Source: Gammaproteobacteria bacterium (GTDB lineage Bacteria > Pseudomonadota > Gammaproteobacteria > SZUA-140). Taken from it: a stretch of 64,000 nucleotides of DNA. The stretch lies in contig JBHHVB010000007.1 in NCBI GenBank assembly GCA_046754065.1, positions 6,881-70,880 on the forward strand, written 5' to 3'. Position numbers and translations under genes: made by a program. This document shows, in pieces, positions 33,535 through 64,000 of the stretch. The notes below the pieces were generated by a model that saw nothing but the letters and a program-made list of their open reading frames with translations, ran no database searches and was not told the DNA's origin. How positions within the stretch are numbered: position 1 is the stretch's first letter; each line of letters opens with the position of its first letter.

Positions 33535-33563
33535 CTTGCAATACAACGGGTCTACATATTGTC

Positions 33564-44313: not shown

Positions 44314-44852
44314 AACCCCCCTCAGATTTTGCGAACCCTGTTTTCTCTTGTTTGTCGTAGGTAACCCTGTACTATACAGCATTTTTTATAAATATTTATT
44401 TGGATTTTCTATGCCTTATAAATAGAGTCAACACAACTCTTCCCGAACCACTCTAAATCATGTCTCTATCCGTCCAGAGCTCTGGATAGACTCGTCAGCC
44501 ATTCGGCTTAAGATGACTTTCATCCTACCAATAGCAGTATCCATGCCACCCGAAAGTTACTGGCAAATATCGAAGCGCTAGTTGTTGTATATAATACAAA
44601 AAAAATCAACTTTCGCTTACCAGGACAGTTCATTAAGTAATAAAGGCAGCTCATGAAGTGTTAAAAGTATCGACACTTGCTGTTTGCAATCCAGGCTGTA
44701 AAAAATTACAGAGTTGTCGTATCACGTTAACAATCCCGTCATGTTCACAGGTCTAACGAGTGAACCCGGTTTAATCTACCAGTCGATATGCAGCTCGTTG
44801 TAGCCGCACCAATCAGATATTCTATTGACGACAGTTTATTGCCAAAGAAAGA

Positions 44853-48685: not shown

Positions 48686-50788
48686 TCAATGATTGAAATC
48701 TGTTAAAAAGCCCTGGTCACGGCTACCAAGCCCCATCGGCCTTTCTATCAGTTGGTACAGGTCTCCAGGTGAAACAACCATTTGACCCACATCACGCGTC
48801 CATGGCGATAGGGACAGAAAAGCGCTTTCATGCGTATCCCTGGTTAGCATCGAACTCAAAGGAACATACATCAATACACCGTGATCCTGGTAAGGGTCTC
48901 CAGGCCTACCTGGCGACGTATTATCGTTTCCGTTAGTATGGGTATACCATGCTCCGACTTCGACACCCGAACGAAAACGCCGCTTCATCTCAATTCGCAT
49001 CCCTTCATCTTTGGCCAAAAAACGTCCGACTTTTGCTGAGAGGGTTATATCATAACGAGAAAACCGGTGATGCAATCCCGCAAATCCAGATATAACTGAA
49101 TAGTCCATCAGGCTAAAGGTATCCCCCGGCCTTCTTTGTTTTAATTGATCCAGAGTTAGATCAAAAGCCCAGCTTCCACCATCTTTTATATATAGTAGCT
49201 GCCCCCCGTAGCCAGCGAACATCGACTCATAATAGCCTGCCGAGGCTCTTGCAAATAACCGCCTATCAATATTCAGGTACTTATTAAGAATCAACCTATC
49301 CAACCTTAACCTGTTGTTTTCACTATTGTACCTGGCAATATCCGTTCTTACGTGGGGCAATAAACTATTTGATTCCTGAGTTACATCGCTCACGTCTTCA
49401 ATCAACGTTAATCGTAATGACGAATCTATAAACAATGAATTACCAATATTTTTGTGAACATCGAGTAGAGAGAAGGTATCATAATGAAATACTCCACTCG
49501 GATCGTTAAAGAAAAACTGCATATTAAATGGTTTAAAGCGGAAGGGGCTATATGCCTGAACATCTCCCGACAAATCCGGTTGATCTGCATCCATTAGAGT
49601 GCGGGACTTCCCCGGATCATCAAAATACAAACCTTCGTCACTATTCTCGACCTTGTTAGTCGAAGACTGAGGATCATAATGATCAAAAGCAACAAGATCG
49701 ATAAGCTCACTGGCATCAACGCCCCGAGCAACCTCTTGGGCAAATCTGGAAGGATCCGTGATTCTATATGTTGCAACTGAAATATCGTTCAGCGTATAGG
49801 TAATCACAATCTCCTCGATTTCCTTCGGAACCAGGTTAACCACCACCTTGGCCGCCCGTCCGACTGCTCTGCTCATCAAGCTTATTCTGTTGTGCGATAA
49901 AGATACGCTAACTTTATGATTAGAGACATTCACAATCACTCGACCAAACCCCCGGCGAACTAGCTCCAAATATAATTTATCCGTTAGATTTACCAATGAT
50001 CTGGAAGTTTTACCTACGGTACCTGGCTCTGACAAACTGGTAAATGATTCAGGTTCATCAATTTTTGGTACAAATTCCTTTTTCATCAGGGGCGCCCCCA
50101 CATAGATATTAAACCCCACTGTATGCGAATTCATTGAAAGCTGCGCACCGTACCAATCGCCAGTATACTCAACGCCGTACCCGAGTTTACGCCTATGATT
50201 TCCTACCTCCGATAACTCTGAATGTGGATCCGTTCTATAGTCATTGGCATCGTACTCCAGAAGGAACGCAAATCGCCTGTTTTTGAACGGCCTGTAACGA
50301 GCCCCACCAAAAAGGCCTTTTATTCGTTCCTTCCCGTATCCGATTGATACATCAAGGGCATTTAACTTTTTGTTCGCAACCACGTACGTGGTTGAAAAAA
50401 GCTGTGTTCCGGTAAAGTCCTGAATACCCACCGCTAACTGAGGCCAATATTTTTTTTCTCCGAATAAAAGTAACTTGGCATCAAATGCCTTGTCCTTTAA
50501 GTCTCCGAATGCGGTATTGGGCCCAAGACCAGGAACATTATCAATCTCGGTATATCGAGCTGATAGTTCCAGATAAGGTAAAACAGTTACGCTGCTCCAC
50601 AGCGCTCGATAGGGTTCAGCCATACTGACTCCTAGCATGAACTGACCATCGCTGCTTAGACGACCATCAGGCATATTGATCAAGCCTGACTGACCAATTA
50701 GCGACGGACCGGCAAAAGCTGAACTTGCATATAAGAAAATGGATACATGAAGTGAACGAAAGAAGCGAAAGCAGGCACTGACCATCAA
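48686..50788 (-). CDS. YjbH/GfcD-family outer-membrane exopolysaccharide protein
   Basis: 700 aa with a signal peptide. N-terminal GQSGLINMPDGRLSSDGQFMLGVS...PYLELSARYTEI resembles the conserved YjbH start (GGvGLlqtPtAR...). Size matches E. coli YjbH/GfcD (~698 aa). Confidence 0.65.
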   Translation of the reverse strand: MMVSACFRFFRSLHVSIFLYASSAFAGPSLIGQSGLINMPDGRLSSDGQFMLGVSMAEPYRALWSSVTVLPYLELSARYTEIDNVPGLGPNTAFGDLKDKAFDAKLLLFGEKKYWPQLAVGIQDFTGTQLFSTTYVVANKKLNALDVSIGYGKERIKGLFGGARYRPFKNRRFAFLLEYDANDYRTDPHSELSEVGNHRRKLGYGVEYTGDWYGAQLSMNSHTVGFNIYVGAPLMKKEFVPKIDEPESFTSLSEPGTVGKTSRSLVNLTDKLYLELVRRGFGRVIVNVSNHKVSVSLSHNRISLMSRAVGRAAKVVVNLVPKEIEEIVITYTLNDISVATYRITDPSRFAQEVARGVDASELIDLVAFDHYDPQSSTNKVENSDEGLYFDDPGKSRTLMDADQPDLSGDVQAYSPFRFKPFNMQFFFNDPSGVFHYDTFSLLDVHKNIGNSLFIDSSLRLTLIEDVSDVTQESNSLLPHVRTDIARYNSENNRLRLDRLILNKYLNIDRRLFARASAGYYESMFAGYGGQLLYIKDGGSWAFDLTLDQLKQRRPGDTFSLMDYSVISGFAGLHHRFSRYDITLSAKVGRFLAKDEGMRIEMKRRFRSGVEVGAWYTHTNGNDNTSPGRPGDPYQDHGVLMYVPLSSMLTRDTHESAFLSLSPWTRDVGQMVVSPGDLYQLIERPMGLGSRDQGFLTDFNH

Positions 50789-50888: not shown

Positions 50889-51266
50889 CTAATGCTGGGT
50901 TGTTGAACTGCCTCCGCCACCAGCGATAGCACCCAACGTTACAGCTATACCTGCACCAATTGCGATGGCCATTTTAGAAACGCCTGACCCGCTAATTTCT
51001 GGTAGCTTTGTCGCCGGAGGAATCGGCAATTCATCTGACAGTATAGTCGGTTCAGGTTGTATCTCCTCGACGACCGGTTCCCGTTGCGGTTTGACCGTAG
51101 GCTCATCCATCCCAATGGCCGCTGCCATTTGTATTTCTGTTTCGACAGAAGACGGGCGATCCCCGTCAACAAATTGCAGCAGTTCATCAAGAATACCCTC
51201 CGAGTCTGAATAAGCCGGTGCTGTAACAAAAAGGATAGTAATAAGAACTATTCGTTGAATCGCCAC
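50889..51266 (-). CDS. Small secreted Gly/Ala/Ser/Thr-rich protein (YjbE/GfcA-like)
   Basis: Start set to GTG 51266 with a strong AAGGAAGG SD, giving signal peptide (M)AIQRIVLITILFVTAPAYS. The C-terminus AIAIGAGIAVTLGAIAGGGGSSTTQH resembles the low-complexity tails of YjbE/GfcA. Confidence 0.5.
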   Translation of the reverse strand: MAIQRIVLITILFVTAPAYSDSEGILDELLQFVDGDRPSSVETEIQMAAAIGMDEPTVKPQREPVVEEIQPEPTILSDELPIPPATKLPEISGSGVSKMAIAIGAGIAVTLGAIAGGGGSSTTQH

Positions 51267-51350
51267 TGGATTGCCTTCCTTATGCGTCAATTAATGCGGA
51301 CAATTTATTCCACTATTACAATCAAATTCGGGATGTCCTAGACTAAAGTT

Positions 51351-53444
51351 TTAATGATATGTATGCACTACTTTGGTTATCAAGTTGGCATTATCACGTT
51401 TTTCTACATTAAATTCCACCTGGCCATAATACGACTTCAACTCGTCACTATTAACCCTTTGTACCCTGACGTGAAAATCTGCACTACCGCTAGCGAAACC
51501 ACCCTGTATTTGCCAAACTATTTTACCTAGAAAAAATTCTCTTTTTTCTGTCGCAGCGAATAACGCACGATAATCTTTCATAACACCGACAAGACTATCA
51601 TGATCATCCGTCACAACATCGTGTGAAAACAACGAGATAAACCGCGCCAAATTGCCTTCCTCGTAAAAGGTAACGAAGTTATCAATCGTCACTTCTAACT
51701 CATCCCGTGTGAGTGCTGTTTGCACTTCAACGGTTTCAGAATTGCCTGAAGGCTCTACCGGGCTATCGCTGCTTCCCGGCACCAAAAAATCATCAACAGT
51801 AGAATTGTCAGGAATTTCGGCAAACTCTCTATTTGAAGCGAACTCATTAATACTGTTTTCAATCTCAGCGTCTACAAACGCATTCTGAACATCAGGCATA
51901 ATAGTCGAAGTATCTTGAGATTGCTCAGGTTGATTGGGCTGATCGAGTAGCGGCCCGGATACCATACTCATCTCGGCATCCTGTTGAGCCGTCAGATGAT
52001 TGACAGGCTGATCCGCCCCAGGAGTAAAACGTTCAGCATTCAGGTTGGCTGTACTGATGGGCTGCAGGACTGAGTCATCGCTTACCGAAGCAGGATTCTT
52101 GCCCGACTGGATATCCCCATTATTATCAATATTTTTTGCAAATTCATTATCTTCAAGCACATTTGGGATATCCGCGGCTGGCAGTTTTTCAACGTCAGCG
52201 GTGCTGGAAGCAGGACTAACTGAGATAGGTCCCGAATCTATCGGTGCCTCCGGCTCCACCAAATCATTATTGACCGTTTGGGATTCTTGTTCTGCCATAC
52301 CCACAGAAAGCGATGCATTAACCTCTGTTTCAACAACAGGTTCTTCTGTATCAACAGGCGGCAGATTTGCTAACTGGTCGCGGTCGATACGGTCAGATTG
52401 TACTATATCCGTCGGCGGGATTTGTTCATCATCACTGGATGAAAGCATCGTAAAACCAACATACAAAAGAATGATAGCTAATGCCGTAATCCCTCCCACC
52501 ATTACTGGTTTACTATTAGAGGGTTGTGAATATCTGTCACGTGCAGTGGCAGCCCGCGTCTTTTTTTGGCCACTGCCTTGATAATCCAGACTTTCCTTTT
52601 TCAATACAATCGTAACATCCGATTGCATATTACTTTGTTTTGGAGAGTCTTCTGAATAATTGCTTTTTTGTTCGCCGATATTATCCAATTTTGGCGGGAC
52701 GACATCATTAACGTCATTTACCGCGTCATATGCGCGGTCAATATTCCTCGCAACATATGATTTACCTATTGGCTTGATTTTTGGTTGGGAGCCGTAGTCT
52801 TGCTCCAGTTCATCGGAACTGTCTTTATGCGGATGATTCACTTGATCAACGAGACTTCCCCCCGGCGAGGATAATACTGACGCTGAAAAAGACACAACGG
52901 GTTTTTCGTTAATCTGCTCACTAGAAGACGCACCAAACCCGGTTGCTAGATTTGAAGCGGTTGATGGCCTACTAAAATCGATGCCCTGAGCACGTAATTT
53001 ATTGTCATATAATCGCTTCTTTTCCGGATCTCGCAAAATACTGTAAGCGCGGTTAAGACGCATAGCATATTCAGCATTCCATTCATCGGCCTTATCGGAT
53101 TTATCCAGGTGAAATAAATGCAGCAAAAGTTTGTAGTTTCGACTTACTTCCTGGAGGGACGCTCCAGGGAATAAGCCTAGCATTCGATACCAGTTACCCC
53201 GGCTTGATAACAGCACACGTTCTGCAAAAAAGGTGACGGCAGCCAGCAGTTCTGTAGGCGGAACATTCTTGAATTCTGGAGAAAGTAAAACAGAGGGTTT
53301 CTGCGAATTACCTGCTGCCAATTCGAGCAATAGATCCACATCTTGCGGCAAATCAACAGAAGAATCTGTTAAATAGTCGTATTGCGAAGGAGCGCGGAAG
53401 AAATCCAGCGCCAGCTGTAAAATATTCTGTATCATTATTACCAA
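51351..53444 (-). CDS. Membrane protein with cytoplasmic degenerate J domain (HLD instead of HPD), single TM, acidic disordered periplasmic linker and C-terminal NTF2/SnoaL-like domain
   Basis: WYRMLGLFPGASLQEVSRNYKLLLHLFHLDKSDKADEWNAEYAMRLNRAYSILRDPEKKRLYD aligns residue-for-residue with DnaJ J-domain helices II-IV except HPD->HLD. TM VMVGGITALAIILLYVGFTML. C-terminal LTRDELEVTIDNFVTFYEEGNLARFISLFSHDVV has an NTF2-like pattern. Confidence 0.65.
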   Translation of the reverse strand: MVIMIQNILQLALDFFRAPSQYDYLTDSSVDLPQDVDLLLELAAGNSQKPSVLLSPEFKNVPPTELLAAVTFFAERVLLSSRGNWYRMLGLFPGASLQEVSRNYKLLLHLFHLDKSDKADEWNAEYAMRLNRAYSILRDPEKKRLYDNKLRAQGIDFSRPSTASNLATGFGASSSEQINEKPVVSFSASVLSSPGGSLVDQVNHPHKDSSDELEQDYGSQPKIKPIGKSYVARNIDRAYDAVNDVNDVVPPKLDNIGEQKSNYSEDSPKQSNMQSDVTIVLKKESLDYQGSGQKKTRAATARDRYSQPSNSKPVMVGGITALAIILLYVGFTMLSSSDDEQIPPTDIVQSDRIDRDQLANLPPVDTEEPVVETEVNASLSVGMAEQESQTVNNDLVEPEAPIDSGPISVSPASSTADVEKLPAADIPNVLEDNEFAKNIDNNGDIQSGKNPASVSDDSVLQPISTANLNAERFTPGADQPVNHLTAQQDAEMSMVSGPLLDQPNQPEQSQDTSTIMPDVQNAFVDAEIENSINEFASNREFAEIPDNSTVDDFLVPGSSDSPVEPSGNSETVEVQTALTRDELEVTIDNFVTFYEEGNLARFISLFSHDVVTDDHDSLVGVMKDYRALFAATEKREFFLGKIVWQIQGGFASGSADFHVRVQRVNSDELKSYYGQVEFNVEKRDNANLITKVVHTYH

Positions 53445-54162
53445 ACATCCACGATGTAGCTTTCCAATATATTGTTTATCGGTAGTCTATCAAGAAATTT
53501 GAATAGAGAGGCACTATATTTAGGGTACTATTACCCGGATTTCAAAAATTCCAGGGGAAGCTAGCTAAATCCAGGCTATTGACGAAGTTATTCAGTCTTT
53601 TTGTTCACTTTCCGATCAGTCCAACACAAAGCTATTTCTTTTTCAAATAGTTCATTCTGAGCAATTATACTATAATTTTCATAAAGATACGAAAAACCAG
53701 GAAAAGTAGCCAAAATACGGCAAAAGTCAGAATGATGCGTGGACAACCCATGGGTGCTGGCAAAACCGTCTGATGCGGTTTTTGAATTAATACAGGAACG
53801 TCGATATAACCGGGCTAGTTCATCCGCACGGCATTCCCAAACAGCGAGCATACTGAATTTAGAAAATCTTCCAAAGCATATCAATAAACAGTTCCTTTTG
53901 CCGATAGTTTTACCTAATCAGGGAGATAAATTTGAAATAATGGCTTGAGTCCAGCTCACACAAAGAGTCCAAAACAAGTTTTTAGTCTCCCCCCGTTTTT
54001 AATATAGAATGCCAAACTGTGAAATAATTTCATATGCCACATTGATAAAAACGAAACTCTAAACCAGGTTAAGATGTTGAGTCTTTTCCGACAAAGTGAA
54101 GTCAGTATCTTTTTAGACTGCACAACAATTCGCACTGCCTAACTTTTAAAAAAGGAAAATCC

Positions 54163-56133
54163 TTGTCAATTTTCTCAATCAAACACCCATTAATTATCAA
54201 AACAATTTCGTTAATATTTGCGGTTGTTCTTCTGGCAATAATGTTGCTACAGTTTAGCAGCAATGAATCCGTAGGCCGCCTCGCCAAGTTTCCCAAACAA
54301 CCTTTCTCACTTGCTGAGTTTGGTCTTTTCGATATGGGGATAGCTGACATCAATGATGATTTATACCTGGATATCTATACAGTTAACCATTCGGGAACAC
54401 AGAGCCTTCTTGTTAATCAAAGCGGCAAAGGATTCGTTGAATCTTTCAACTCAATGGATTTAGATCAGGATCCTTCGTTTCCCGGTCTGGTCGTCAGCCC
54501 GGATAAACCTGAATTTGATAAACCTGGGCTTTATATATACTGGCATGGACCCAAACTGGTTGTAGAGGCATATAGCCTGGTTAGATCTGAACCGGTAAAA
54601 GGTAGCATAGAATTGTTATCTCCAACTGAAGATCATGCTGACCCGGTCGTAAAATTCTCAAAGCGAGAAACTGCACTGGATCATGGTATCAATAAAACAA
54701 GTATCTCCTTCACCTTTGAAAAAGATGGCGTTTTCGCCATCAAACCCCTTTTACATGCACTGCCTATCCAGTTTGATATTGATAAAAAAGTTGAACCCGA
54801 ATCAATTTTTATCGGGCATAAACACATAGCACCTGATTTCAATTTTTTCTCCATAAACATGCGTGATCGCCATGGCATGTCCTGGGCAGATCTAACCAAT
54901 GACGGAAACACCGATTTATTAATTACACGAGGCGGACAGAGAGGGTGGATGGTACGCATGGATGAGAATTACTGGGATGAACTGTTTATCAGCGATGGTA
55001 ATAAATTTCATGAAACTGGCAAATCCGCTTCGCTACTGAAGGATGGATGTTCAGGCAGAAAAATAGCGTTAGTTGACTATAACAACGATAACAATCTCGA
55101 GTTTTATATCGTGTGCGGCAAGGGTCGCTCCTACCAACCTAACAAACTGTTTGCTCAGCAAGCAGATGGTACCTATTTTGATATTGCCAGCCAGGTCGGG
55201 TTAGATATAGGCCAGGATGGTAATTTTATCTGGACAGATGCCGATGCAGATGGGGATCTGGATATGTTTTGGGTTGATCACCAGTCATTTTATATCTATC
55301 AAAATCAATCTGGACATTTTGAAAAATTTCATCTTGGAACCAACCCAGCCCAACGAGTAAGCGAAAAACTCACAATCGCCGATTTTGATAACGATGGTGA
55401 TTTTGATATTTTTTCAGCATCGCCCGGCGGAAATGTATTATGCATTAACACCGGGAGCACCTATGCGATCACGAATCCCGTGCAGTGGGGGTTGCCTGCC
55501 AAAAGTGCCGTCGCAAACTGGGTAGACTATGACAACGATGGATTAAAAGACATACACTTTATTCCGAACGGAATATACCGCAATCTTGGAAACGGGAGAT
55601 TCAAACGAACATCTATATTATCGTTACAAGAAAACAAATACTCTTCCCGGCGCCTATATAAATCGAGGGTTTCGTGGTTTGATATCGACAACGATGGTAC
55701 GCGCGATGCAGTCATTGCCATGGAATTCGGTTTAAACCAAGGATTCCCGGCTTCAATTCTGGCCAGACTTAATGGTGACAGCAATCGCCTGGGAGGATTA
55801 AGGTCATTCTGGGAAGCCGGTCTGTATAGGAATGATCATACCGTTAATAACTGGCTTCAAATAGACGTGACCGGACCTCCAGGAAACAAACCTGGCATAG
55901 GCGCTAAAGTGACTGTTGAAACCAGCAACTTCATCCAGGTTCAGCAAGTCGGGGAAAATGAGGGAGCACGATACTCCCAAGGTCACTACCGATTATATTT
56001 TGGTCTCGGGAAGATGCATGAAATAAAATCCATTACCGTCGACTGGCCTGATGGGCGAGCACAATCCATACAATCGCAACAGCCAAACCAGTTAATCACA
56101 ATTGACTGGGTTAACGCCGATAGTGCAGTATAG
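54163..56133 (+). CDS. CRTAC1-family protein (FG-GAP/VCBS repeats + ASPIC/UnbV C-terminal domain), paralogue 1
   Basis: FG-GAP-like Asp-rich repeats (DFDNDGDFDIF, DADGDLDMFWVD). C-terminal UnbV_ASPIC signature NNWLQIDVTGPPGNKPGIGAKVTVETSN...YRLYFGLGKMHEIKSITVDWPDGRAQ. TTG start with AAGGAAAA SD. Confidence 0.75.
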   Translation: MSIFSIKHPLIIKTISLIFAVVLLAIMLLQFSSNESVGRLAKFPKQPFSLAEFGLFDMGIADINDDLYLDIYTVNHSGTQSLLVNQSGKGFVESFNSMDLDQDPSFPGLVVSPDKPEFDKPGLYIYWHGPKLVVEAYSLVRSEPVKGSIELLSPTEDHADPVVKFSKRETALDHGINKTSISFTFEKDGVFAIKPLLHALPIQFDIDKKVEPESIFIGHKHIAPDFNFFSINMRDRHGMSWADLTNDGNTDLLITRGGQRGWMVRMDENYWDELFISDGNKFHETGKSASLLKDGCSGRKIALVDYNNDNNLEFYIVCGKGRSYQPNKLFAQQADGTYFDIASQVGLDIGQDGNFIWTDADADGDLDMFWVDHQSFYIYQNQSGHFEKFHLGTNPAQRVSEKLTIADFDNDGDFDIFSASPGGNVLCINTGSTYAITNPVQWGLPAKSAVANWVDYDNDGLKDIHFIPNGIYRNLGNGRFKRTSILSLQENKYSSRRLYKSRVSWFDIDNDGTRDAVIAMEFGLNQGFPASILARLNGDSNRLGGLRSFWEAGLYRNDHTVNNWLQIDVTGPPGNKPGIGAKVTVETSNFIQVQQVGENEGARYSQGHYRLYFGLGKMHEIKSITVDWPDGRAQSIQSQQPNQLITIDWVNADSAV

Positions 56134-56169
56134 AAACATAAACTTATTCAGCAAATCCTGGAATAAAAA

Positions 56170-57138
56170 TTGCTCCAATCAAATCAAAAAAACGACTTAG
56201 CCGCCGACCAAAAGCCTATTTTGGTGACTGGTTCACCTCGCTCGGGCACAACCTGGGTGGGGCAGATGTTGGCAAAAGATCATCGCCTATATTACGTTCA
56301 CGAACCGTTTAATCCGGCAAGCAAGTATGTAAAAAAACATTATAATCTCAGGCTCAATCAACATTTCATACACATTTGTGATGAAAACAGCCAACAATAT
56401 TACTCAGCGATCACAGATTTAATAAACGGCAAATATAACTTGCTAAATGCACTTACCTACGCGCGTTCTCTTCAGGATCTTAGATCCACCTTCAGGGAAT
56501 GGCGGCAGACCACCGTCCAAAAGAACAAGGGCATATTACCTCTAATCAAGGATCCGATTGCCCTGATGTCTGCGGAGTGGCTGTACAACAACTTTGATAT
56601 TCGCTGCGTGGTATTGATCAGACATCCAGCTGCGTTTGTTTCAAGCATGAAACGATTAAACTGGGTATCACACCCTGAAAACTGGGCACTGTCTCAACCC
56701 CTGCTTATCCGGGATTTTCTTAAGCCACTGGAATCAGAGATCAATGCACTTCGGACTGGTGAGCATGACATTATTGAACGGGCAGCATTAGCGTGGAAAA
56801 TCCACCATTTAGTGATTTCGAAATACTATGCCAAGCACGAAGACTGGATATTTCTGCGTCACGAAGATATATCGAAAACCCCAATGGATTCCTTTGAGAA
56901 ACTATATCACAGCCTGGGATTGACATTTAATAATGAGATTCGACAAATCATAAACGAGCATAGCAGCGAAACAAACCCTGACAGCTCGACTGGAAAAGAC
57001 AAACCCATCAGACTCAACAGCCAGCAAAATATTTCAAGCTGGAAAAAACGTTTGGCATCGGACGAAGTAGCCCGAATACGAGACAGCGTTGAAGATATTT
57101 CAACTCAGTTCTATTCGGATGACGACTGGCTTACCTAG
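56170..57138 (+). CDS. Sulfotransferase-family protein
   Basis: PAPS 5'-phosphosulfate-binding loop LVTGSPRSGTTWVGQML near the N-terminus. TTG start. Confidence 0.7.
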   Translation: MLQSNQKNDLAADQKPILVTGSPRSGTTWVGQMLAKDHRLYYVHEPFNPASKYVKKHYNLRLNQHFIHICDENSQQYYSAITDLINGKYNLLNALTYARSLQDLRSTFREWRQTTVQKNKGILPLIKDPIALMSAEWLYNNFDIRCVVLIRHPAAFVSSMKRLNWVSHPENWALSQPLLIRDFLKPLESEINALRTGEHDIIERAALAWKIHHLVISKYYAKHEDWIFLRHEDISKTPMDSFEKLYHSLGLTFNNEIRQIINEHSSETNPDSSTGKDKPIRLNSQQNISSWKKRLASDEVARIRDSVEDISTQFYSDDDWLT

Positions 57139-59144
57139 TCTATTTCTACCAGCCCACCACTTTCCGTTATTTTGACAATCTGGTCTGCACTGATATCTGT
57201 AAACTCTTGTTCCATTCCGCTCGGCCACCTGAGTTTTAATCTATCGATCTTTTCGTTAGAACCTAAACCAAAATGAAGCCGTTGAAAATTTTGTGCAATT
57301 CGATGATACCCACCACGTTGTTCTCTGACCTGCTTATGACCTCCGGCGTCAATCCAAACCGTTGCGCCTATACCGTCCCGATTAGATTCCTGCCCCTCAA
57401 GGTCTATTTCCAGCCAATGATTATTATTTCCCTTATTACGGTATAACTGATGCGGGCCGGCTGCTACAAAAGGCGAAGCGGGGTCCAGGCCATTGGTGAT
57501 AAAGAGATCCAGGAACCCGTCATGATCATAATCGGCTAACGCAACCACATCACCGCGCCCCAGATGACTACCTTCAGCCCCACCTGCATATTTTACCTCT
57601 TTAAAATTACCCGACCCGTCATTCTCTAATAACCGGTTAGGTATATTCTGTACTGGGCCGGAACAGACCAGGTACAGATCAATATCCTGATCATTGTCAA
57701 AGTCGCCTTCAGCGACCGAATGACAGGATGTATCGTTAGCCAACTCGTCTTTCATAGCTCGCCTTGCAAATTTACCACCTTCCCTGATCAACAGGACATC
57801 GGCACCTGTTTCTGCAAAAGGTCGAAATCCCTGCATCTGAATATTCTTTACAGGCTTCTCTGACTTGACGATAAAATCGACAAATGCACTCCTTGATGTA
57901 TTTCTTATTGTCCAGCTTTTTTTCTCTGTATCATAAAAGATCGCGACCCCCTTGTGCTTGACTGTTTCCGGAAATTCTGGACCATGGATGCTAACATCAT
58001 CATCAGATAGCCTGAATAACCTTTTTACCGGGTTACGCCCCTGATGGCCAAGAAATATGTTCGACAGTTTCAGGAAAGTAGGATGTATCTCTACGCTAAT
58101 ACTTCCGTCCGTTTGAAAGTCCACAGATTTGATTTGCCCGCCCCGGCGCCCCATCAATGATCCCCGAATCTCCTTATCTCCCAGCTGAACAACATCCGAC
58201 ACCAGGAATGGCCCTTTCGTTAAATACATATCAGATTGCCCATCACCGTTATAATCTGCAATCGCCACATCACTAACCGTATCAACAGAAGGAAAACCGG
58301 CAGCGGCAGTTTCTTCATTTAATTCATTTTCAACAAGAGAGAACAGCCTGGTCGGTGATGAAAAGAAGACGAGATCCAGCCGCTTGTCATCCAAAAGCCT
58401 GGTTAACTGCGCATGTTCCTGGTTTAAATCCATATGAAGCAGGCCCACATCTTCAAAATTCAGATCTAATGCGTTGTATAACATTGCCAAATAGTGGTCC
58501 GTAGTCGACCATTCTTCGTCTACGAATCCGATCTCATCATTCGCCGCGACAAACCTGGCCGCCTGTTGAATAAAAAGTGTTGACGAAGGCATACCCCGAC
58601 TTCGGTTCCGGGTATTGATTGCCAAAAGATCAAGCCGACCGTCATTGTTGGCATCAAGCCACAGCGGAGAACGGCCCAGACCTTTGACAGCCACACCCAG
58701 CGTCCTTGCACTTTCAATCAGCTTCCCCTGATCATTAACAAACAGGTGATTTCGCCCGCAACCAAAACACAAGGTTCCATCGTTATTGACCGTAGCGCCA
58801 ACAATCTCTACAAGGTCCTGGTCCCCATCATTATCAAAATCTGCCCATGCAGCGCCATGAGTATCAGCTTCAGGATTCTCATTCCATATATTGTCAATAA
58901 TGTTATCAAAAGTGCCATCTTGCTTATTCAGGTATAAACTCGGTTTGCTGTTATGATTCCCTACCCATAAATCTGGCCAGCGATCACCGTTAAAATCTCC
59001 CCACGCGGCACCATAACTCTGCCCGGCATGACCCATATTGACTTTTTCGGTGACCTCCTCAAACTGAATATCAGCGACAACCACTTCAGAAACCAGCAGC
59101 ATAGCAATAATCGCTGACAACCATTTCGTTGACATTAATTTCAT
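57135..59144 (-). CDS. CRTAC1-family protein (FG-GAP + ASPIC/UnbV), paralogue 2
   Basis: Signal peptide MKLMSTKWLSAIIAMLLVSEVVVA. Repeats WGDFNGDRWPDLWVGNH, WADFDNDGDQDLV. UnbV_ASPIC end NHWLEIDLEGQESNRDGIGATVWIDAGG...RLHFGLGSNEKIDRLKLRWPSG. About 50% identical to paralogue 3. Start uncertain (59144 vs 59216). Confidence 0.75.
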   Translation of the reverse strand: MKLMSTKWLSAIIAMLLVSEVVVADIQFEEVTEKVNMGHAGQSYGAAWGDFNGDRWPDLWVGNHNSKPSLYLNKQDGTFDNIIDNIWNENPEADTHGAAWADFDNDGDQDLVEIVGATVNNDGTLCFGCGRNHLFVNDQGKLIESARTLGVAVKGLGRSPLWLDANNDGRLDLLAINTRNRSRGMPSSTLFIQQAARFVAANDEIGFVDEEWSTTDHYLAMLYNALDLNFEDVGLLHMDLNQEHAQLTRLLDDKRLDLVFFSSPTRLFSLVENELNEETAAAGFPSVDTVSDVAIADYNGDGQSDMYLTKGPFLVSDVVQLGDKEIRGSLMGRRGGQIKSVDFQTDGSISVEIHPTFLKLSNIFLGHQGRNPVKRLFRLSDDDVSIHGPEFPETVKHKGVAIFYDTEKKSWTIRNTSRSAFVDFIVKSEKPVKNIQMQGFRPFAETGADVLLIREGGKFARRAMKDELANDTSCHSVAEGDFDNDQDIDLYLVCSGPVQNIPNRLLENDGSGNFKEVKYAGGAEGSHLGRGDVVALADYDHDGFLDLFITNGLDPASPFVAAGPHQLYRNKGNNNHWLEIDLEGQESNRDGIGATVWIDAGGHKQVREQRGGYHRIAQNFQRLHFGLGSNEKIDRLKLRWPSGMEQEFTDISADQIVKITESGGLVEID

Positions 59145-59236
59145 TACCTTTGTTTTGTACTTTCTGTTCATCGCCATACCCTGTAACTCAGCACCAACAT
59201 TAACGGCAAACCACAAAACGTGGTTAGCCTTCCAAT

Positions 59237-61168
59237 TCAGGATTCTTCATTAACAGTAAGAATCTGATTCGCGCTTATATTTCGCAATTCCTGCACTACA
59301 CCGCTTGGCCAGAAAATAGTTAACTTCTTTGCATTGACGTAATTTCCCAGCCCAAAATGCACGCGCATCGCGTCCTGGGAAAAACTGTGCATACCACCAT
59401 TGTTAACCCTGACCTGTCTGACTCCACCCGTTTCGAGTATTAACCTTGCCCCAATTCCATCTCGATTGGACTGTTTACCTACCAGGTCTATTTCAAGCCA
59501 GTGATTGGAATTACCCGCATTTCTGAATAATTGATGTGATCCTTCATTCGCAAAAGGAGGAGGACCGAAACCGTTGGTTACAAACAAATCCAGAAACCCG
59601 TCCTGATCAAAATCTGCCACCGAGACCTGATTTCCCCTACCAGACATACTTCCGGAGGCACCACCGGCTCGTGCTACCTTTACAAACCTACCCTGTCCAT
59701 CGTTTTCATATAACAGGTTTGGGTAATTTGATGTTGGTCCCGAGCAAACCAGATACAGATCGATATCCATATCATTGTCAAAATCCCCTGATGCGGCGGA
59801 TGCACACGCAGTAAAGTGGTCAACCAACCCCATTTGCCGCTGCTTGTAATCTCCATTTTCATTTAGCAGTAACACATCACTCAATGCACCATCAGATGGT
59901 TTAAAGCCTTTTGTCTCCACATAATCAATAAAATCAGTTGAAGAAACCCTGAAATTGATCATGCGCAGGGAACTGCCAAAACTCCACTCTCTTGATTTGG
60001 CGTCAAAACGAATCCAAGTTGCTAAATCTTTACGATTTTTAGAGGGTACTGGCCCAATCACAGCGGGATCACTGGGCGAGACCGTCACTGTTGAACTTGT
60101 CAATTCAACTTTTTTTGATCCAACAAACAGAATAGTTTTCTCATTCCGTCTTGGGTCGGATGGGTCCATCCAGGGAAGGTGTACGTCAAGGGTAATCTCT
60201 CCCTCACTTCGAAATAACACTGTTTTTGTCTGATTTTTCCTGTTTGCCAACTTTCCCTGTATATGCTGCCTATCTGTTTGCAGCACCGTCATCGCAGACT
60301 GCCTAGAACGAACCAGAAACCAGTCGAACACACCATCACCGTTAAAATCATTGATCGCTATATCCCTGATGGCGCGAATTTTGGGAAGTTTTATCTGACC
60401 CGTGATTTCCTCGTAATCATCCAACCCAATATTTATAATCCTCTCTGGATTGGTATAGGTTATTAACTCTATCCCTTCATGTTTGGATATGTCCGCGAGT
60501 TGAGCAAATTCATCCGCAACTTTTAGCCCAGGTGATTTTGCGGTACTTTTTTTTGTATTTTTGAAAATATCTACCATTTTACCCGAGGAGAATTTTCCAT
60601 CAATTGCCTGCAGGAATACATCCGTCGGTGCCTCTGCTCTATAGCGATTCATGAGCAAGGCATCAAGCAATCCATCAGCGTTATAATCCAGCCACAATGG
60701 TGTTCTACCTCTACCAAGAGGATAACTTAGTCCCACTTCCTCCGCCTTCTCAACCAGATTGCCCGATTCATTGACAAAATAATGATTGGGACTAACACCA
60801 TGCCCGGCCCCTCCACCCGTGACAACGAGCAAGTCCTGATCGCCATCATTATCAACGTCGGCCCATGACGCACCGTGGTAATCCAGCACAGGAGTTCCGT
60901 CCAGCAGCTCGCTGGCAATATCCCTAAAACGACCGTCACGTTGATTCAAGTAGAGGCTAGGTGCTATCCCATGGTGATTTGATACCCACAGGTCCGGCCA
61001 GCCATCGTTATTGAGATCACCCCAGGCAGAGGCTGCCGTGGGTAAACCGGATTTCATACCAGCCTTATTTGAAACATCCACGAATTGAATTTCGCAAAAA
61101 GACGTAAGGGGAATGACGAATAATAATAGTGCACCCGAAATTCGGGATAAAACGCTGCTATCAGTCAT
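59237..61168 (-). CDS. CRTAC1-family protein (FG-GAP + ASPIC/UnbV), paralogue 3
   Basis: Signal peptide. WGDLNNDGWPDLWVSNHHG, WADVDNDGDQDLLVVTGG. C-terminal NHWLEIDLVGKQSNRDGIGARLILETGG...RVHFGLGNYVNAKKLTIFWPSG. Confidence 0.75.
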   Translation of the reverse strand: MTDSSVLSRISGALLLFVIPLTSFCEIQFVDVSNKAGMKSGLPTAASAWGDLNNDGWPDLWVSNHHGIAPSLYLNQRDGRFRDIASELLDGTPVLDYHGASWADVDNDGDQDLLVVTGGGAGHGVSPNHYFVNESGNLVEKAEEVGLSYPLGRGRTPLWLDYNADGLLDALLMNRYRAEAPTDVFLQAIDGKFSSGKMVDIFKNTKKSTAKSPGLKVADEFAQLADISKHEGIELITYTNPERIINIGLDDYEEITGQIKLPKIRAIRDIAINDFNGDGVFDWFLVRSRQSAMTVLQTDRQHIQGKLANRKNQTKTVLFRSEGEITLDVHLPWMDPSDPRRNEKTILFVGSKKVELTSSTVTVSPSDPAVIGPVPSKNRKDLATWIRFDAKSREWSFGSSLRMINFRVSSTDFIDYVETKGFKPSDGALSDVLLLNENGDYKQRQMGLVDHFTACASAASGDFDNDMDIDLYLVCSGPTSNYPNLLYENDGQGRFVKVARAGGASGSMSGRGNQVSVADFDQDGFLDLFVTNGFGPPPFANEGSHQLFRNAGNSNHWLEIDLVGKQSNRDGIGARLILETGGVRQVRVNNGGMHSFSQDAMRVHFGLGNYVNAKKLTIFWPSGVVQELRNISANQILTVNEES

Positions 61169-61576
61169 TAGTTATTTAAGATCCTGTTAATTTGGAATAA
61201 GAGAAACAAGCACCGCATACCGAGTTTTTCCTTACAGATTGCTGATTGAAGATACTGCTAACGATTCATCACATCAACTAAAGTTAACGGCCAAAATACG
61301 CGTTGCTTGATCACGCAAATCCTGTAACGGAATCATTAAAATAGGTTTTACAACCTAATCCGGGAAATTGATCATTTCTTATGGCCAGGAGCGCACGAAC
61401 TCAGTGAGTTGACTAACATAGTAGATTTTCACTATGGAAACCAGGCCACGCGTTTGAAACACCATTTAAACCGACATTTACATAGACCTCTTTAAAGTAC
61501 AAACATAAACCATTGAGTGACAAGTTCATTTTATCAGGCGGTATTTTTTAACCTATGTTATTGAAATAATTTTAGA

Positions 61577-61604
61577 ATTTCCGCCTTGACAAGCCAACAA
61601 CGCC
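61577..61604 (+). promoter_or_regulatory. Near-consensus sigma70 promoter (TTGACA-16 nt-TATAAT)
   Basis: ttgaca at 61577-61582, a 16-nt spacer and tataat at 61599-61604. This predicts a TSS near 61611, about 380 nt upstream of the next ORF. Confidence 0.5.
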
Positions 61605-61990: not shown

Positions 61991-63364
61991 ATGAAATCGT
62001 CACCAAAATTTAGTTTGTTGTTGCGAATCTGCTTAACGGTTTTTATATCGTTATGCTTTGCTGCGTGTAATAACCTAAACGATTTACACGGTAATAATTC
62101 TAGCGGAACTGATTTTTCCATTGGTGTCTCAGCCAATTCGGTCGTTGGTACCCAGACCGTTACCGAATCAAAAATTGAGATCAACGGCCAGACAAACAGT
62201 GAAGCCATAGAAGCCCTAAATATTTCCGGGGCTGACTTTACGCTTGATATTTCTGCGAGTGCGACCTACCCCGTGATCATAAGTACCGTGGATGGAACTA
62301 ATGTTGTTACCGGATTATCTGAAGAACTCACTTTGCATTCAGTAATAATGTCAGAAAATCAAAAAACGGCGAACCTCAATTCACTTTCCACAATCATCGC
62401 CAAAACCGCGCAAGCCATGCCAGGCGGATTGACAGATGATAATTTTGCGCTTGCAAATCAATACGTCCAGCAAAGCCTGAATTTTGGTCTGGACACGCAG
62501 CTGATCGAGAATGCTGTGACATCAACTGTCAATGAAAATAATGTAGCGGCCTTGGTCAAAGCCAGCGAATCTTTTTCAGAGTCGCTTCGTAGAACAATAT
62601 CTGCACTACAAATAATCGGGTTGACGGTGACGCTTGATGATCTTGTTGAGGCCTTGGCTGCTGACCTGATCGATGGGTACCTGGATGGATCCGGAGGCGA
62701 AAAAGCAAAAGCACTCTATACGGCAACGACCCTCATCGTAGCCGGACAGGTCATCATTGAAGCACTTAGCAATAATCTGGCTCTAAACCAAATTCAGGAT
62801 AATGGCCAATTGGATAATGCGGTGAAAATTATGGTCCCTGCTACCGAGACCACTATTGAAGATGTATCAATTACTCCAGAATTATTGATTCAACTTCGTC
62901 ACGCACTAAACGTAGCAAAACTGGTGACTCCTGGAGAAAATATATCCACACTGATGCTTGCATTAAACACACTTGATGCAGGCCAAAGCGCAGCAGAAAT
63001 GGGTTCATTATTGCCACCATCAAGAGGCGCTGAACTTAACGATGCCATTACACTTGCATCATTAACTATAAACATTGAGCTTAGCAAAGTTTACGCGATG
63101 GAAAACATCGCCGCACCATCAGATTCGAATCTAACACTTGCATGGAATTCACCAGATCAGAACATCATAGGTTATATCGTCTATTACGGTGATTCTCCCC
63201 TTACTGCGTCATCCATCGTCTCAGAAACTAATCAATCGGCGATCACATTTGATGTCGACAAGGACCTGGGTCTGAAACCTGGAGACAACCTGTGCCTGAG
63301 ATTAAAAGCCTATAATCAGTTTGGCCTGTCAGATTTCTCAGGCGCTGCCTGTATGGTATTATAA
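61991..63364 (+). CDS. Lipoprotein with C-terminal fibronectin type III-like domain
   Basis: Lipobox LCFAAC. Thr/Ser-rich N-terminal region. C-terminal NLTLAWNSPDQNIIGYIVYYGDSPL...LKPGDNLCLRLKAYNQFGLSDFS is FN3-like. Confidence 0.6.
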   Translation: MKSSPKFSLLLRICLTVFISLCFAACNNLNDLHGNNSSGTDFSIGVSANSVVGTQTVTESKIEINGQTNSEAIEALNISGADFTLDISASATYPVIISTVDGTNVVTGLSEELTLHSVIMSENQKTANLNSLSTIIAKTAQAMPGGLTDDNFALANQYVQQSLNFGLDTQLIENAVTSTVNENNVAALVKASESFSESLRRTISALQIIGLTVTLDDLVEALAADLIDGYLDGSGGEKAKALYTATTLIVAGQVIIEALSNNLALNQIQDNGQLDNAVKIMVPATETTIEDVSITPELLIQLRHALNVAKLVTPGENISTLMLALNTLDAGQSAAEMGSLLPPSRGAELNDAITLASLTINIELSKVYAMENIAAPSDSNLTLAWNSPDQNIIGYIVYYGDSPLTASSIVSETNQSAITFDVDKDLGLKPGDNLCLRLKAYNQFGLSDFSGAACMVL

Positions 63365-63586: not shown

Positions 63587-64000
63587 ATGCAGCCAACCAG
63601 ACAAAGATCATCGCAAACGGGTAAAGCCGGTACTACTGTTGCAGTCCTCACAGCAGGTTTGATACTGGGCATATCTACCGCAGCAACTGCTGCGGTTGGC
63701 ACTCCCACTGTCACCTATAACCTGTTCTCCAGCGATAGTTCAATCCGACTCAATAGCCAACTATTATCTAGCGATGCCATAACACACAATGAGAACAGGT
63801 ACATATACGTTTATCCAACAGATAACATAGCCAAAGTCGAATATTACCTTGATGGAATTGCGTACCAGACAGAATATTATCGGCCATATGATTTCTCCGG
63901 TACTGTTAAGGGAGTTGCGTCTCCGTTCTTTACCGGCGACCTGTCACCCGGTACTCACAACATCACGGCAGAGTTATTCCTTAAAAACGGAACCGTTATT
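63587..64000 (+). CDS. Secreted hypothetical protein (partial, continues past window end)
   Basis: ATG 63587 and signal-like AGTTVAVLTAGLILGISTAATAAVG. No stop before 64000. Confidence 0.45.
   Translation, partial: MQPTRQRSSQTGKAGTTVAVLTAGLILGISTAATAAVGTPTVTYNLFSSDSSIRLNSQLLSSDAITHNENRYIYVYPTDNIAKVEYYLDGIAYQTEYYRPYDFSGTVKGVASPFFTGDLSPGTHNITAELFLKNGTVI

Follow-up and report, generated by a model that had tools for sequence, protein, structure and literature searches.

The locus described here raises the question of what bacterial proteins of the CRTAC1 type do, and why a sulfotransferase gene should lie among three of them. The window, a 64,000-nucleotide stretch of contig JBHHVB010000007.1 from a gammaproteobacterium, carries three FG-GAP plus UnbV_ASPIC (CRTAC1-type) genes and one sulfotransferase gene in the following arrangement:

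54163-56133, plus strand: P1, CRTAC1-type, 656 aa
56170-57138, plus strand: ST, sulfotransferase, 322 aa
57135-59216, minus strand: P2, CRTAC1-type, 693-aa ORF
59237-61168, minus strand: P3, CRTAC1-type, 643 aa

These genes, families and coordinates had been given in a preliminary description of the DNA and were recovered exactly, with FG-GAP_3 and UnbV_ASPIC in P1, P2 and P3 and Sulfotransfer domains in ST, all of these Pfam matches lying above the gathering score; the names "CRTAC1 family protein" and "sulfotransferase" are already in use at NCBI. The convergence of ST on P2 with a 4-nt overlap also held, the two stop codons spanning 57135-57138 (TAG at 57136-57138 and the reverse complement of 57135-57137), and the UnbV_ASPIC motifs quoted in that description are in place except in P1, where IDV and WPDG replace IDL and WPSG. 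ST starts 36 nt 3' of P1 and the two are probably co-transcribed, while P3 lies upstream of P2 across a 20-nt gap, and this pair probably shares one operon.

ST is a cytoplasmic PAPS-dependent sulfotransferase. It matches Sulfotransfer_3 (1.9e-14) and Sulfotransfer_1 (4.4e-8), a hydrophobic N-terminus was looked for and none was found, and the AF2 model (pLDDT 91.4) has the PAPS-sulfotransferase fold. The 3'-phosphate-binding (3'-PB) motif, on which the earlier assignment had been made to depend, is present: R151-H152-P153 and S159 are invariant among 30 homologues, as are G21, R24, S25, G26, T28 and W29 of the 5'-PSB loop and, further, E45, K127, D128, P129 and S284. In fold, 5'-PSB loop and 3'-PB motif the enzyme resembles its nearest structures, TPST1/2, CurM ST, the olefin-synthase (OLS) ST and mycobacterial Stf1, and it has a Glu and a Lys at positions used in TPST catalysis. 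It nevertheless differs from every solved enzyme, with just 14-16% identity and a TM of ~0.5 to any of them, and thus stands in a clade of its own. Bacterial sulfotransferases that act on carbohydrates include NodH and LpsS.

The pairing of the two gene families recurs elsewhere. In all eight independent contigs with close relatives (proteins ~50% identical to those of the window), a sulfotransferase gene lies beside the CRTAC1 genes or at most two genes away, in glycan-biosynthesis clusters with these gene orders (CR, CRTAC1 gene):

L008: ST-CR-ST, with overlapping stop and start codons
L005, L090, L091: ST-CR-ST
L004: ST-CR-CR-ST
L003: ST-P1-ST-P3-P2-ST
JGI 3300075153: CR-CR-P1-ST
L006: ST within two genes of CR

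The sulfotransferase gene is the immediate neighbour of the CRTAC1 gene or array in seven of the eight and flanks it on both sides in six. The whole P1+P2+P3 set was found again in two contigs, L003 and JGI 3300075153, where 46-58 nt separate the P1-type orthologues from sulfotransferase genes; L003, L004 and L006 have P2-type and P3-type genes in tandem. These clusters also contain sugar-nucleotide genes, glycosyltransferases and Wzm/Wzt; that of Thiogranum (L012) has PAPS synthase and Wzx in addition, and those of Poribacteria have Wzx, Wzy and four sulfotransferases. In Methyloprofundus (one genome), a P1-type propeller is fused behind a Wzx flippase with consistent topology. C-terminal surface modules (dockerin, FlgD_ig or Big_9/cadherin) are found on the CRTAC1 protein in other phyla, and Big_9/cadherin domains are fused onto the CRTAC1 protein itself in Thiogranum. 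Three different export systems accompany the pairing, which was seen in Gammaproteobacteria, Poribacteria, Zetaproteobacteria, Cyanobacteria, Planctomycetota, Myxococcota and Burkholderiaceae.

The co-occurrence that the preliminary description had proposed as a check is statistically supported across phyla by a scan of species-representative genomes, in which a sulfotransferase was counted if within 10 kb of a CRTAC1 locus: in the P2/P3-type clade 20 of 43 loci were positive, as against 0 of 37 distant CRTAC1 loci (Fisher p = 4.9e-7, a value that overstates independence because Poribacteria supply roughly half of the positive genome loci). With falling similarity to P2 the count declines in the manner of a dose-response, from 2/2 through 10/12 and 8/29 to 0/37 loci, and a permissive sulfotransferase search gave no extra matches in the scanned loci. 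From the other side, sulfotransferase homologues of 35-46% identity have a CRTAC1 neighbour in 1 of 80 loci. The link is clade-specific both ways, being lacking in distant CRTAC1 proteins and in more distant sulfotransferase homologues. Clade members without a sulfotransferase sit in unrelated contexts (TonB receptor, peptidases, haem genes), and no alignment column tells them from the linked ones. We consider it very likely that this CRTAC1 clade is functionally linked to sulfotransferases of glycan biosynthesis.

It is improbable that there is no specific coupling in this genome and that both kinds of gene merely hitch-hike in variable islands of cell-surface genes in marine and sediment bacteria. 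Such a view would accommodate the missing link in about half of the insertion-bearing clade, in distant family members and in most sulfotransferase homologues, as well as the fact that ST converges on P2 from outside its operon with no glycosyltransferase nearby. It sits poorly, however, with the immediate adjacency in seven of eight contigs, with flanking on both sides in six (by a rough estimate, expected by chance in ~2% of cases when a cluster of 20 genes has three sulfotransferases), with recurrence in seven lineages and three export systems, and with the reappearance of the whole three-gene set in two contigs.

A second alternative, which we rate as highly improbable, is that the sulfotransferases act on the CRTAC1 proteins and not on a sugar, O-sulfating Tyr or Ser residues in the cytoplasm ahead of Sec export. 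Of the solved relatives, human TPST1/2 rank with the closest by sequence profile (E about 1e-3) and have in common with ST the G-x-P-R-S-G-T-T loop, a K-D-P motif and a Glu that follows the loop Arg by 21 residues, and the ST and CRTAC1 genes are directly adjacent, often with no glycan gene between (L005, L008, L090, L091). HMW1C and TibC are precedents for modifying Sec substrates in the cytoplasm, and RaxST for sulfating a secreted peptide. The TPST matches are marginal, however (TM ~0.5, 15% identity), two enzymes with non-protein acceptors, CurM ST and Stf1, give equally good scores, and two to four sulfotransferases together with PAPS synthase, sugar-nucleotide genes, glycosyltransferases and flippases make up a gene set for a sulfated glycan. 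No conserved Tyr in an acidic context was found besides the ordinary core positions of the FG-GAP Ca loops.

The propeller proteins are suited to act outside the cytoplasm, with export signals on P1, P2 and P3 and none on ST. P1 (FG-GAP_3 1.7e-26; UnbV_ASPIC 2.8e-16) is strongly hydrophobic over residues 11-29 (Kyte-Doolittle 2.78) and is predicted to be a periplasmic propeller on an N-terminal membrane anchor; it has the "short" architecture, without the central insertion. P2 (FG-GAP_3 5e-32; UnbV_ASPIC 2.6e-18; FG-GAP 6e-13) probably starts at M25 or M28, yielding a Sec signal peptide, and its product in NCBI is 666 aa. It shares with P3 (FG-GAP_3 2.2e-28; UnbV_ASPIC 7.2e-17; FG-GAP 1.4e-14) a central insertion of ~250 aa that is not present in distant family members. 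Each protein has four to five Ca loops (four canonical motifs in P1, five in P2), all are strongly acidic (net charge -18 to -36), and an Arg/His/Gln cluster in the UnbV_ASPIC part is invariant (R613, Q629, R631, H638, Q642, R646, H648). P2 and P3 had been described as ~50% identical products of a local duplication; their identity is 38% (57% similarity) over 663 columns, and P2-type and P3-type lineages form old sister clades, the duplication being ancient rather than local. P1 can be aligned with either only over its last 208-245 residues, at 29-30% identity.

The only PDB relative found by sequence is vertebrate CRTAC1 (phmmer 1.1e-14; profile 7.7e-25). Murine CRTAC1 (9etn) is also the best PDB match that Foldseek returned for the AF2 model of P2 (pLDDT 89.3), with E 3.8e-26 and a target-normalised TM of 0.70. 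Like the vertebrate protein, the bacterial ones are secreted and acidic, with FG-GAP Ca2+-binding propeller repeats followed by UnbV_ASPIC, but identity is ~15%, P2 and P3 have the additional insertion, Pfam finds no EGF-like C-terminal domain in them, and the bacterial genes, unlike the vertebrate ones, are located in glycan and sulfotransferase clusters. The top 50 Foldseek matches of P2 include CRTAC1, integrin alpha, DDB1-type propellers and the PVL lectin, and no enzyme and no lyase is among them. In the literature searched, nothing was found on a CRTAC1-sulfotransferase link or on experiments with any bacterial CRTAC1 member.

Our preferred reading, to which we give somewhat less than even confidence, is that the propellers are Ca2+-dependent, lectin-like binders or organisers of a polymer, by analogy with Vibrio cholerae Bap1/RbmC. 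The latter are secreted beta-propellers tied to a specific exopolysaccharide, which they bind directly through a metal-containing site and organise, and they carry an extra beta domain inserted in the propeller (PMC10102183; bioRxiv 10.64898/2026.08.03.742583). They come closest as a model of the way the module may work, as an analogy and not through family membership, for no homology to the propellers was found by sequence profile search or within the top 50 fold matches, and Bap1/RbmC, unlike P1-P3, are without a UnbV_ASPIC domain. To our knowledge, VPS is not sulfated and no sulfotransferase partner has been described for it. A precedent for the genomic logic is that of SLH-domain surface proteins and the pyruvyltransferase CsaB, in which exported proteins that recognise a modified cell-wall glycan are encoded together with the enzyme that adds the anionic group, although folds and chemistry are unrelated.

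It is also possible, if unlikely, that the propellers are extracytoplasmic enzymes (lyase, hydrolase, epimerase or chain-release factor) that process a sulfated glycan, in parallel with periplasmic AlgL, PelA, PslG and BcsZ of other exopolysaccharide operons. CRTAC1 genes are translationally coupled within biosynthetic operons (L008), the Wzx fusion puts the P1 type where lipid-linked units emerge, PL11, PL22, PL24 and PL25 are Ca2+-dependent beta-propeller polysaccharide lyases, and the UnbV_ASPIC part contains the invariant Arg/His/Gln cluster given above. That cluster, however, marks the entire family, vertebrate CRTAC1 included, and no catalytic activity is known for the latter; the propeller sequences match no enzyme family in Pfam, NCBIfam or PDB sequence searches, in keeping with the Foldseek result; and two to three anciently diverged paralogues per cluster would be unusual for one processing enzyme. 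Two observations are counted against the binders preferred here: acidic propellers would not readily bind a polyanion without Ca2+ as a bridge, and operon coupling and flippase fusion suit a biosynthetic enzyme equally well.

The exopolysaccharide-export locus that neighbours the cluster is real, and with the remaining surroundings it comprises:

42925..44382, minus strand: priming undecaprenyl-phosphate glucose phosphotransferase, WcaJ type (Bac_transf, CoA_binding_3; NCBIfam TIGR03023 1.1e-166, 555.7 bits against a cut-off of 410.75)
44853..45818, minus strand: polysaccharide co-polymerase-like protein, Wzz (3.3e-9) and GNVR (2.9e-7), no kinase domain
45928..48585, minus strand: Wza-like outer-membrane polysaccharide export protein (OPX), 885 aa (Poly_export 1.1e-22, SLBB/SLBB_2 3e-38)
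48686..50788, minus strand: YjbH-family outer-membrane exopolysaccharide protein (Pfam YjbH 1.8e-128)
50889..51290, minus strand: small 133-aa protein with a Gly/Ser/Thr-rich C-terminus
51351..53444, minus strand: 697-aa DnaJ (J) domain protein, first gene of the export operon (DnaJ 9.5e-10)
53445..54162: 718-bp divergent intergenic region between the P1-ST and export operons, by geometry
61991..63364, plus strand: 457-aa putative lipoprotein/surface protein divergent from P3 (C-terminal fn3 5e-4, under the cut-off)
63587..64000, plus strand: start of a 473-aa Big_9/Big_7/fn3 surface protein that runs past the window end (L094 11597-13018: Big_9 4e-12, Big_7 2e-7)

The 133-aa protein has no family match in Pfam or NCBIfam and may resemble small proteins of the YjbE/GfcA type. 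The intergenic region contains an unannotated 98-aa ORF (53588-53884, minus strand) with no Pfam match, and promoter-like sites in it are no commoner than in shuffled sequence. On the other side, the gene at 61991..63364 is the first of four for surface proteins, after which (order from L094) a second sulfotransferase gene follows ~7 kb past the window end. The locus resembles E. coli colanic acid, yjbEFGH and group 4 capsule systems in its Poly_export+SLBB OPX, Wzz/GNVR PCP-like protein, YjbH and TIGR03023 transferase; it differs in that the PCP is without a kinase domain, a DnaJ-domain gene heads the operon, and genes for glycosyltransferase, Wzx and Wzy are absent from the window. The adjacency of an exporter, as previously described, stands for this genome, but the Wza/YjbH exporter is not the conserved partner: relatives adjoin Wzm/Wzt ABC exporters or Wzx/Wzy systems.

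Taken as a whole, the four genes may quite plausibly form a sulfated-glycan accessory module joined to the exopolysaccharide pathway, with the propellers binding or organising the polymer, a reading to which we give slightly less than even confidence. In this scheme, ST would use PAPS to sulfate a lipid-linked sugar chain begun by the WcaJ-type transferase, the enzyme class being established and the acceptor what we infer, and the glycan, to judge from the gene set, would be exported through the adjoining PCP, Wza and YjbH machinery. Outside the cytoplasm the acidic, Ca2+-loaded propellers would meet the sulfated polymer, P1 tethered to the inner membrane beside the flippase exit and P2 and P3, exported by Sec, either soluble or surface-associated. 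There they would most probably bind, hold and organise it in a Ca2+-dependent, lectin-like manner, as Bap1/RbmC do with VPS. The module of CRTAC1 proteins, sulfotransferase and exported polymer envisaged in the preliminary description is upheld in its co-occurrence and PAPS motifs, and that it binds or modifies a sulfated polymer is the part we infer. Weighed against this explanation are the window's want of glycosyltransferase, Wzx and Wzy, the unrelated contexts of members without a sulfotransferase, and the single CRTAC1 neighbour among 80 sulfotransferase homologue loci. CRTAC1 is an orphan family that includes a human cartilage protein, and its pairing with sulfotransferases provides a first testable lead to its function, pointing to sulfated sugar polymers.

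The window, part of a gammaproteobacterial metagenome-assembled genome, carries a compact module in which three CRTAC1-type proteins (P1, P2 and P3) surround a sulfotransferase (ST). ORF calls and Pfam place the four genes exactly where the preliminary description had put them:

54163-56133, plus strand: P1, FG-GAP_3 repeats and a C-terminal UnbV_ASPIC domain
56170-57138, plus strand: ST, Sulfotransfer_3 and Sulfotransfer_1
57135-59216, minus strand: P2, FG-GAP_3 repeats and a C-terminal UnbV_ASPIC domain
59237-61168, minus strand: P3, FG-GAP_3 repeats and a C-terminal UnbV_ASPIC domain

All of these Pfam assignments exceed gathering thresholds. UnbV_ASPIC (PF07593) scores 59.6 bits in P1, 66.1 in P2 and 61.5 in P3 against a cut-off of 23.4, and covers positions 1-67 or 1-68 of the 68 in the profile. 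Each propeller protein features 4-5 canonical Ca2+-binding D-x-D-x-D-G loops, and all three are strongly acidic. ST lies 36 nt downstream of P1 and P2 lies 20 nt downstream of P3, and the reported 4-nt overlap of ST and P2 is borne out, with the stop codons of both genes interlocking in CTAG. The products are already named 'CRTAC1 family protein' and 'sulfotransferase' by NCBI. NCBIfam has no family for P1, P2 or ST, and a P3 match to its XAC2610 domain was set aside as a repeat-level match to the Ca-loop motif that carries no functional information. The likeness of P1 to P2 and P3 is confined to its last 208-245 residues (29-30% identity). For P2 and P3, pairwise alignment gives 38% identity instead of the ~50% first claimed, and in a rough neighbour-joining tree the P2-type and P3-type proteins are sister lineages, each with genes of the window and of the related contigs L003, L004 and L006. 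Because each lineage spans four different organisms, the recent local duplication that had been proposed is rejected, and the duplication is old.

ST retains the motifs expected of an enzyme that uses the sulfate donor PAPS. In its 5'-phosphosulfate-binding loop, PRSGTTW (residues 23-29), G21, R24, S25, G26, T28 and W29 are invariant among 30 homologues. The 3'-phosphate-binding motif, whose absence was to have counted against the original reading, is present, with R151, H152, P153, A154 and S159 invariant in the same set, as are E45, K127-D128-P129 and S284. An AlphaFold model of ST (pLDDT 91.4) has only sulfotransferases among its 50 listed Foldseek matches (50/50); the best is CurM ST (E 4.4e-7), joined by TPST1/2, olefin-synthase ST and Stf1, all at TM ~0.5 and ~15% identity. 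The motifs are intact and the fold is that of a sulfotransferase at low identity, and the sequence and model thus indicate that ST is a true PAPS-type sulfotransferase belonging to a separate clade. The modelled structure does not reveal which acceptor it uses. A profile search finds Stf1 and TPST1/2 at E 1e-4 to 1e-3. Outside the PAPS motifs no significant similarity to TPST was found, the E values of 6e-4 to 4e-3 coming from short motif stretches, and the structural match to TPST (TM ~0.5) is not above that to CurM ST. Such sulfotransferases might act on the CRTAC1 proteins, but support for this is poor. As a separate point of annotation, the NCBI product of ST is 304 aa long, which implies a start at V19, 18 codons inside the ORF. 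This start would delete a conserved K-P-I-L strand ahead of the PAPS loop, and the longer ORF is therefore probably correct; P16 is invariant among homologues.

The association of CRTAC1 genes with sulfotransferases extends well beyond the window. Among eight independent contigs from different samples or assemblies, with proteins ~50% identical to those of the window, all eight have an ST beside a CRTAC1 gene or at most two genes away; the two kinds of gene share a strand and lie within clusters for glycan biosynthesis.

Gene order in the eight contigs (CR, CRTAC1 gene)
L003: ST-P1-ST-P3-P2-ST
L004: ST-CR-CR-ST
JGI 3300075153: CR-CR-P1-ST
L005, L090, L091: ST-CR-ST
L008: ST-CR-ST, with overlapping stop/start codons
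L006: CR at most two genes from an ST

P1-type genes, which have the short architecture, adjoin STs in L003 and JGI 3300075153, and P1-type genes are also present in cyanobacterial isolates of Coleofasciculus and Phormidesmis. The other genes of these clusters encode sugar-nucleotide synthesis enzymes, C-methyl-, carbamoyl-, acetyl- and glycosyltransferases, and Wzm/Wzt. More distant loci are similarly composed but use different export routes. In Thiogranum, three STs and Wzx occur together with rml genes, a PAPS synthase of the bifunctional type and a CRTAC1 protein that carries fused Big_9/cadherin modules. Poribacteria loci combine CRTAC1 proteins bearing dockerin and FlgD_ig modules with four STs, a Wzy_C protein and a flippase resembling MurJ/Wzx. 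In L008 and JGI 3300075153, the clusters are bordered by giant surface proteins with Big_9/He_PIG/CBM6 domains.

A scan of 80 CRTAC1 loci in species-representative genomes, binned by A1-HMM score, shows that the share of loci with an ST drops as similarity to P2 drops.

CRTAC1 loci with an ST within 10 kb, by A1-HMM score
At least 800: 2/2
600-800: 10/12
400-600: 8/29
Below 400: 0/37

The contrast of 20/43 with 0/37 loci supports the co-occurrence statistically (Fisher p = 4.9e-7), although this p value overstates independence because 9 of the 20 positives are Poribacteria. ST density per 100 kb is 16-18 at scores of at least 600 and 4.2 at scores of 400-600, and near distant CRTAC1 proteins it is 0 in 480 kb; a permissive sulfotransferase search of the scanned loci returned no additional matches. 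Positive loci come from Gammaproteobacteria, Poribacteria, Zetaproteobacteria, Cyanobacteria, Planctomycetota, Myxococcota and Burkholderiaceae. Mere hitch-hiking of the two gene families would also place them together, but it is unlikely since STs are the immediate neighbours of CRTAC1 genes on both sides, across phyla. A co-occurrence proxy that paired entries of different match lists by the length of the longest contig gave many concordant pairs, one of them proven false (on a 5065-bp contig), and it was kept for supporting use only and restricted to contigs no shorter than 8 kb.

The partnership also has clear limits. CRTAC1 genes flank the ~49%-identical ST homologues of L090 and L091. 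A 44%-identical homologue from Betaproteobacteria (P0233) has no CRTAC1 neighbour; its gene is flanked by one for an APS kinase and one for a 647-aa protein of the Sulfatase family (L092 9247-12855; MAG GCA_016208415.1). Near ST homologues of 35-46% identity on JGI metagenome contigs, a CRTAC1 gene was found at 1 of 80 loci, as a weak match, and the link therefore does not extend to sulfotransferases in general. On the propeller side, ST-less members of the P2/P3 clade adjoin a TonB-dependent receptor, peptidases or haem genes and not glycan clusters. Alignment columns separating ST-linked from ST-less members yielded only the weak column S550, and by this sequence comparison the clade appears to have no sulfate-specific signature. 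The partnership, although real, is thus restricted to particular lineages of both families. In one ST-less case (L024 6950-12355), the CRTAC1 gene lies directly downstream of the TonB-dependent receptor; by analogy, this layout recalls loci for the uptake of glycans, a hint that proteins of the clade may deal with exogenous glycans as well.

P2, the one propeller protein of the three that was modelled (AlphaFold pLDDT 89.3), has a sole strong relative in the PDB by both structure and sequence, murine CRTAC1 9etn (9etn_A: Foldseek E 3.8e-26, TM 0.56/0.70; profile search E 7.7e-25). Far weaker fold matches include integrin alpha headpieces, generic propellers and the FG-GAP lectin PVL, and no enzyme occurs among the best 50 Foldseek matches. 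A central insertion of ~250 residues (215-470 in P2, with 335-470 all beta-strand in the model) is found in every P2/P3-clade protein and is missing from distant CRTAC1 proteins and P1. The ASPIC domain features an invariant Arg/His/Gln cluster (R613, Q629, R631, H638, Q642, R646 and H648). PAPS-independent arylsulfate sulfotransferases are periplasmic propellers; an assignment of P1-P3 to that class had no Pfam support and was rejected.

By hydrophobicity, P1 begins with a very hydrophobic segment consistent with a membrane (signal) anchor, and the N-termini of P2 and P3 are signal-peptide-like, with a homologue consensus ending in A-x-A; the true start of P2 is likely M25 or M28. The N-terminus of ST is neither anchor-like nor signal-peptide-like. 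In a Methyloprofundus MAG (GCA_013138565.1; L093 5258-8663 (+)), protein P0328 is an apparent in-frame fusion, read from one assembly and running off the contig end, in which a Wzx-type flippase part (Polysacc_synt/Polysacc_synt_3) is followed by a P1-type propeller. An extra transmembrane helix joins the two parts and, as predicted from the sequence, would give the propeller a periplasmic location. Close by is a Sulfotransfer_4 gene that also gives a faint Inositol_P match.

Upstream of P1 and divergent from it, a minus-strand operon encodes a DnaJ-domain protein, a small Gly/Ser/Thr-rich protein, a YjbH-family protein (Pfam YjbH 1.8e-128), an 885-aa Wza-like exporter (Poly_export and SLBB) and a co-polymerase-like protein (Wzz and GNVR), followed after a gap by a WcaJ-type priming transferase above the TIGR03023 cut-off. 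The locus thus has the OPX (Wza), PCP, YjbH and priming phosphoglycosyl transferase components of a Wzx/Wzy or group-4-capsule-type system, but Wzx, Wzy and glycosyltransferase genes were not found in the window or the 5 kb past it and may lie elsewhere in the genome. Downstream of P3, same-organism contigs carry four surface-protein or unknown genes of 457 aa (putative lipoprotein), 473 aa (Big_9/fn3), 482 aa and 401 aa (the last two without a family match). After them, ~7 kb past P3, a second sulfotransferase gene follows beyond the window end:

L094 16096-16974 (window-equivalent 68086-68964), minus strand: Sulfotransfer_3, 292 aa, E 7.5e-23

Because this gene follows the surface-protein genes, the module probably reaches beyond the window. 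A promoter and terminator scan of 53300-62100 gave no excess over shuffled controls. Within that result, a perfect sigma-70 consensus (TTGACA, 16 nt, TATAAT; 12/12) lies at 61586-61613 (+), between the divergently oriented genes of P3 and the putative lipoprotein and ~380 nt upstream of the latter gene. Elsewhere in the window, two c-di-GMP proteins less than 35 kb from the exopolysaccharide locus (18253-21177 (-), DAHL-PAS-GGDEF-EAL; 33531-34517 (+), REC-GGDEF) are possible regulators of it, and a 1344-aa protein with DUF6242 and DUF11 repeats (13633-17667 (+)) is probably a large surface protein. The window also encodes a 563-aa dCTP deaminase at 1801-3492 (-) (PF22769 in two stretches) that an intein (PF14890, Intein_splicing) interrupts at residues 125-491, and a 1011-aa single-chain fusion at 23711-26746 (-), downstream of E1 alpha and beta genes. 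In this fusion a lipoyl/E2 acyltransferase part (Biotin_lipoyl, E3_binding, 2-oxoacid_dh) is joined to an entire dihydrolipoamide dehydrogenase, E3 (Pyr_redox_2 and Pyr_redox_dim).

The most likely reading of these features is a scheme in which one or more STs would sulfate a lipid-linked glycan in the cytoplasm and the propellers would engage the sulfated polymer after its export. We favour Ca2+-dependent binding and organising of the polymer as the role of the propellers, because their structural neighbours are lectin- and integrin-like, the clusters contain two or three anciently diverged paralogues each, the proteins of other phyla have additional modules for surface anchoring, and the propeller of the Vibrio cholerae matrix adhesins Bap1/RbmC, which binds and organises the polysaccharide VPS via a metal-containing site, is a direct precedent (PMC10102183; bioRxiv 10.64898/2026.08.03.742583). 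This likeness is one of analogy and not of homology, as Bap1/RbmC are missing from the PDB profile matches of P2 at E <= 1 and from its best 50 Foldseek matches. A serious rival is that the propellers are periplasmic processing enzymes, which would fit the coupling in operons, the fusion to a flippase and the invariant Arg, His and Gln residues in the ASPIC domain; beta-propeller polysaccharide lyases (PL11/22/24/25) would be one candidate class. A far broader proposal is that the whole CRTAC1/ASPIC family consists of ancient Ca2+-dependent receptors or handlers of sulfated glycans, which we consider improbable. If it were true, the bacterial clade would be a dedicated extracytoplasmic partner of sulfated-polysaccharide biosynthesis; P1 would sit at the flippase exit, with P2 and P3 in the periplasm or matrix; P1-P3 might form a three-paralogue complex; and vertebrate CRTAC1, a biomarker of osteoarthritis located in cartilage rich in sulfated glycosaminoglycans, would retain this ligand class.

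Bacterial CRTAC1-type proteins number in the thousands, and no experimental function for any of them was found in the literature; vertebrate CRTAC1, widely measured as a disease biomarker, has no established molecular function. In the full-text library searched, no paper links bacterial CRTAC1/ASPIC proteins to sulfotransferases; related mentions are limited to counts of the domain in Poribacteria and to one CRTAC1 gene located close to homologues of hydrazine synthase. One apparent match for the pairing concerns coccolithophore orthogroups and was discarded. The genes themselves are new members of annotated families, and the novelty lies in their conserved arrangement as a CRTAC1-sulfotransferase cassette inside glycan clusters. 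The module occurs with ABC-, Wzx/Wzy- and Wza/YjbH-type export systems, and its movement between these three types suggests a portable cassette that serves to 'sulfate and handle'. To our knowledge, sulfated polysaccharides are rarely documented in bacteria, and such polymers are relevant to carbon cycling, host mimicry and biotechnology. The conserved, clade-specific partnership with sulfotransferases provides the first concrete ligand hypothesis for the family, namely sulfated sugar polymers, and points to a set of uncultured bacteria, marine, sediment-dwelling and sponge-associated, that probably produce sulfated polysaccharides.
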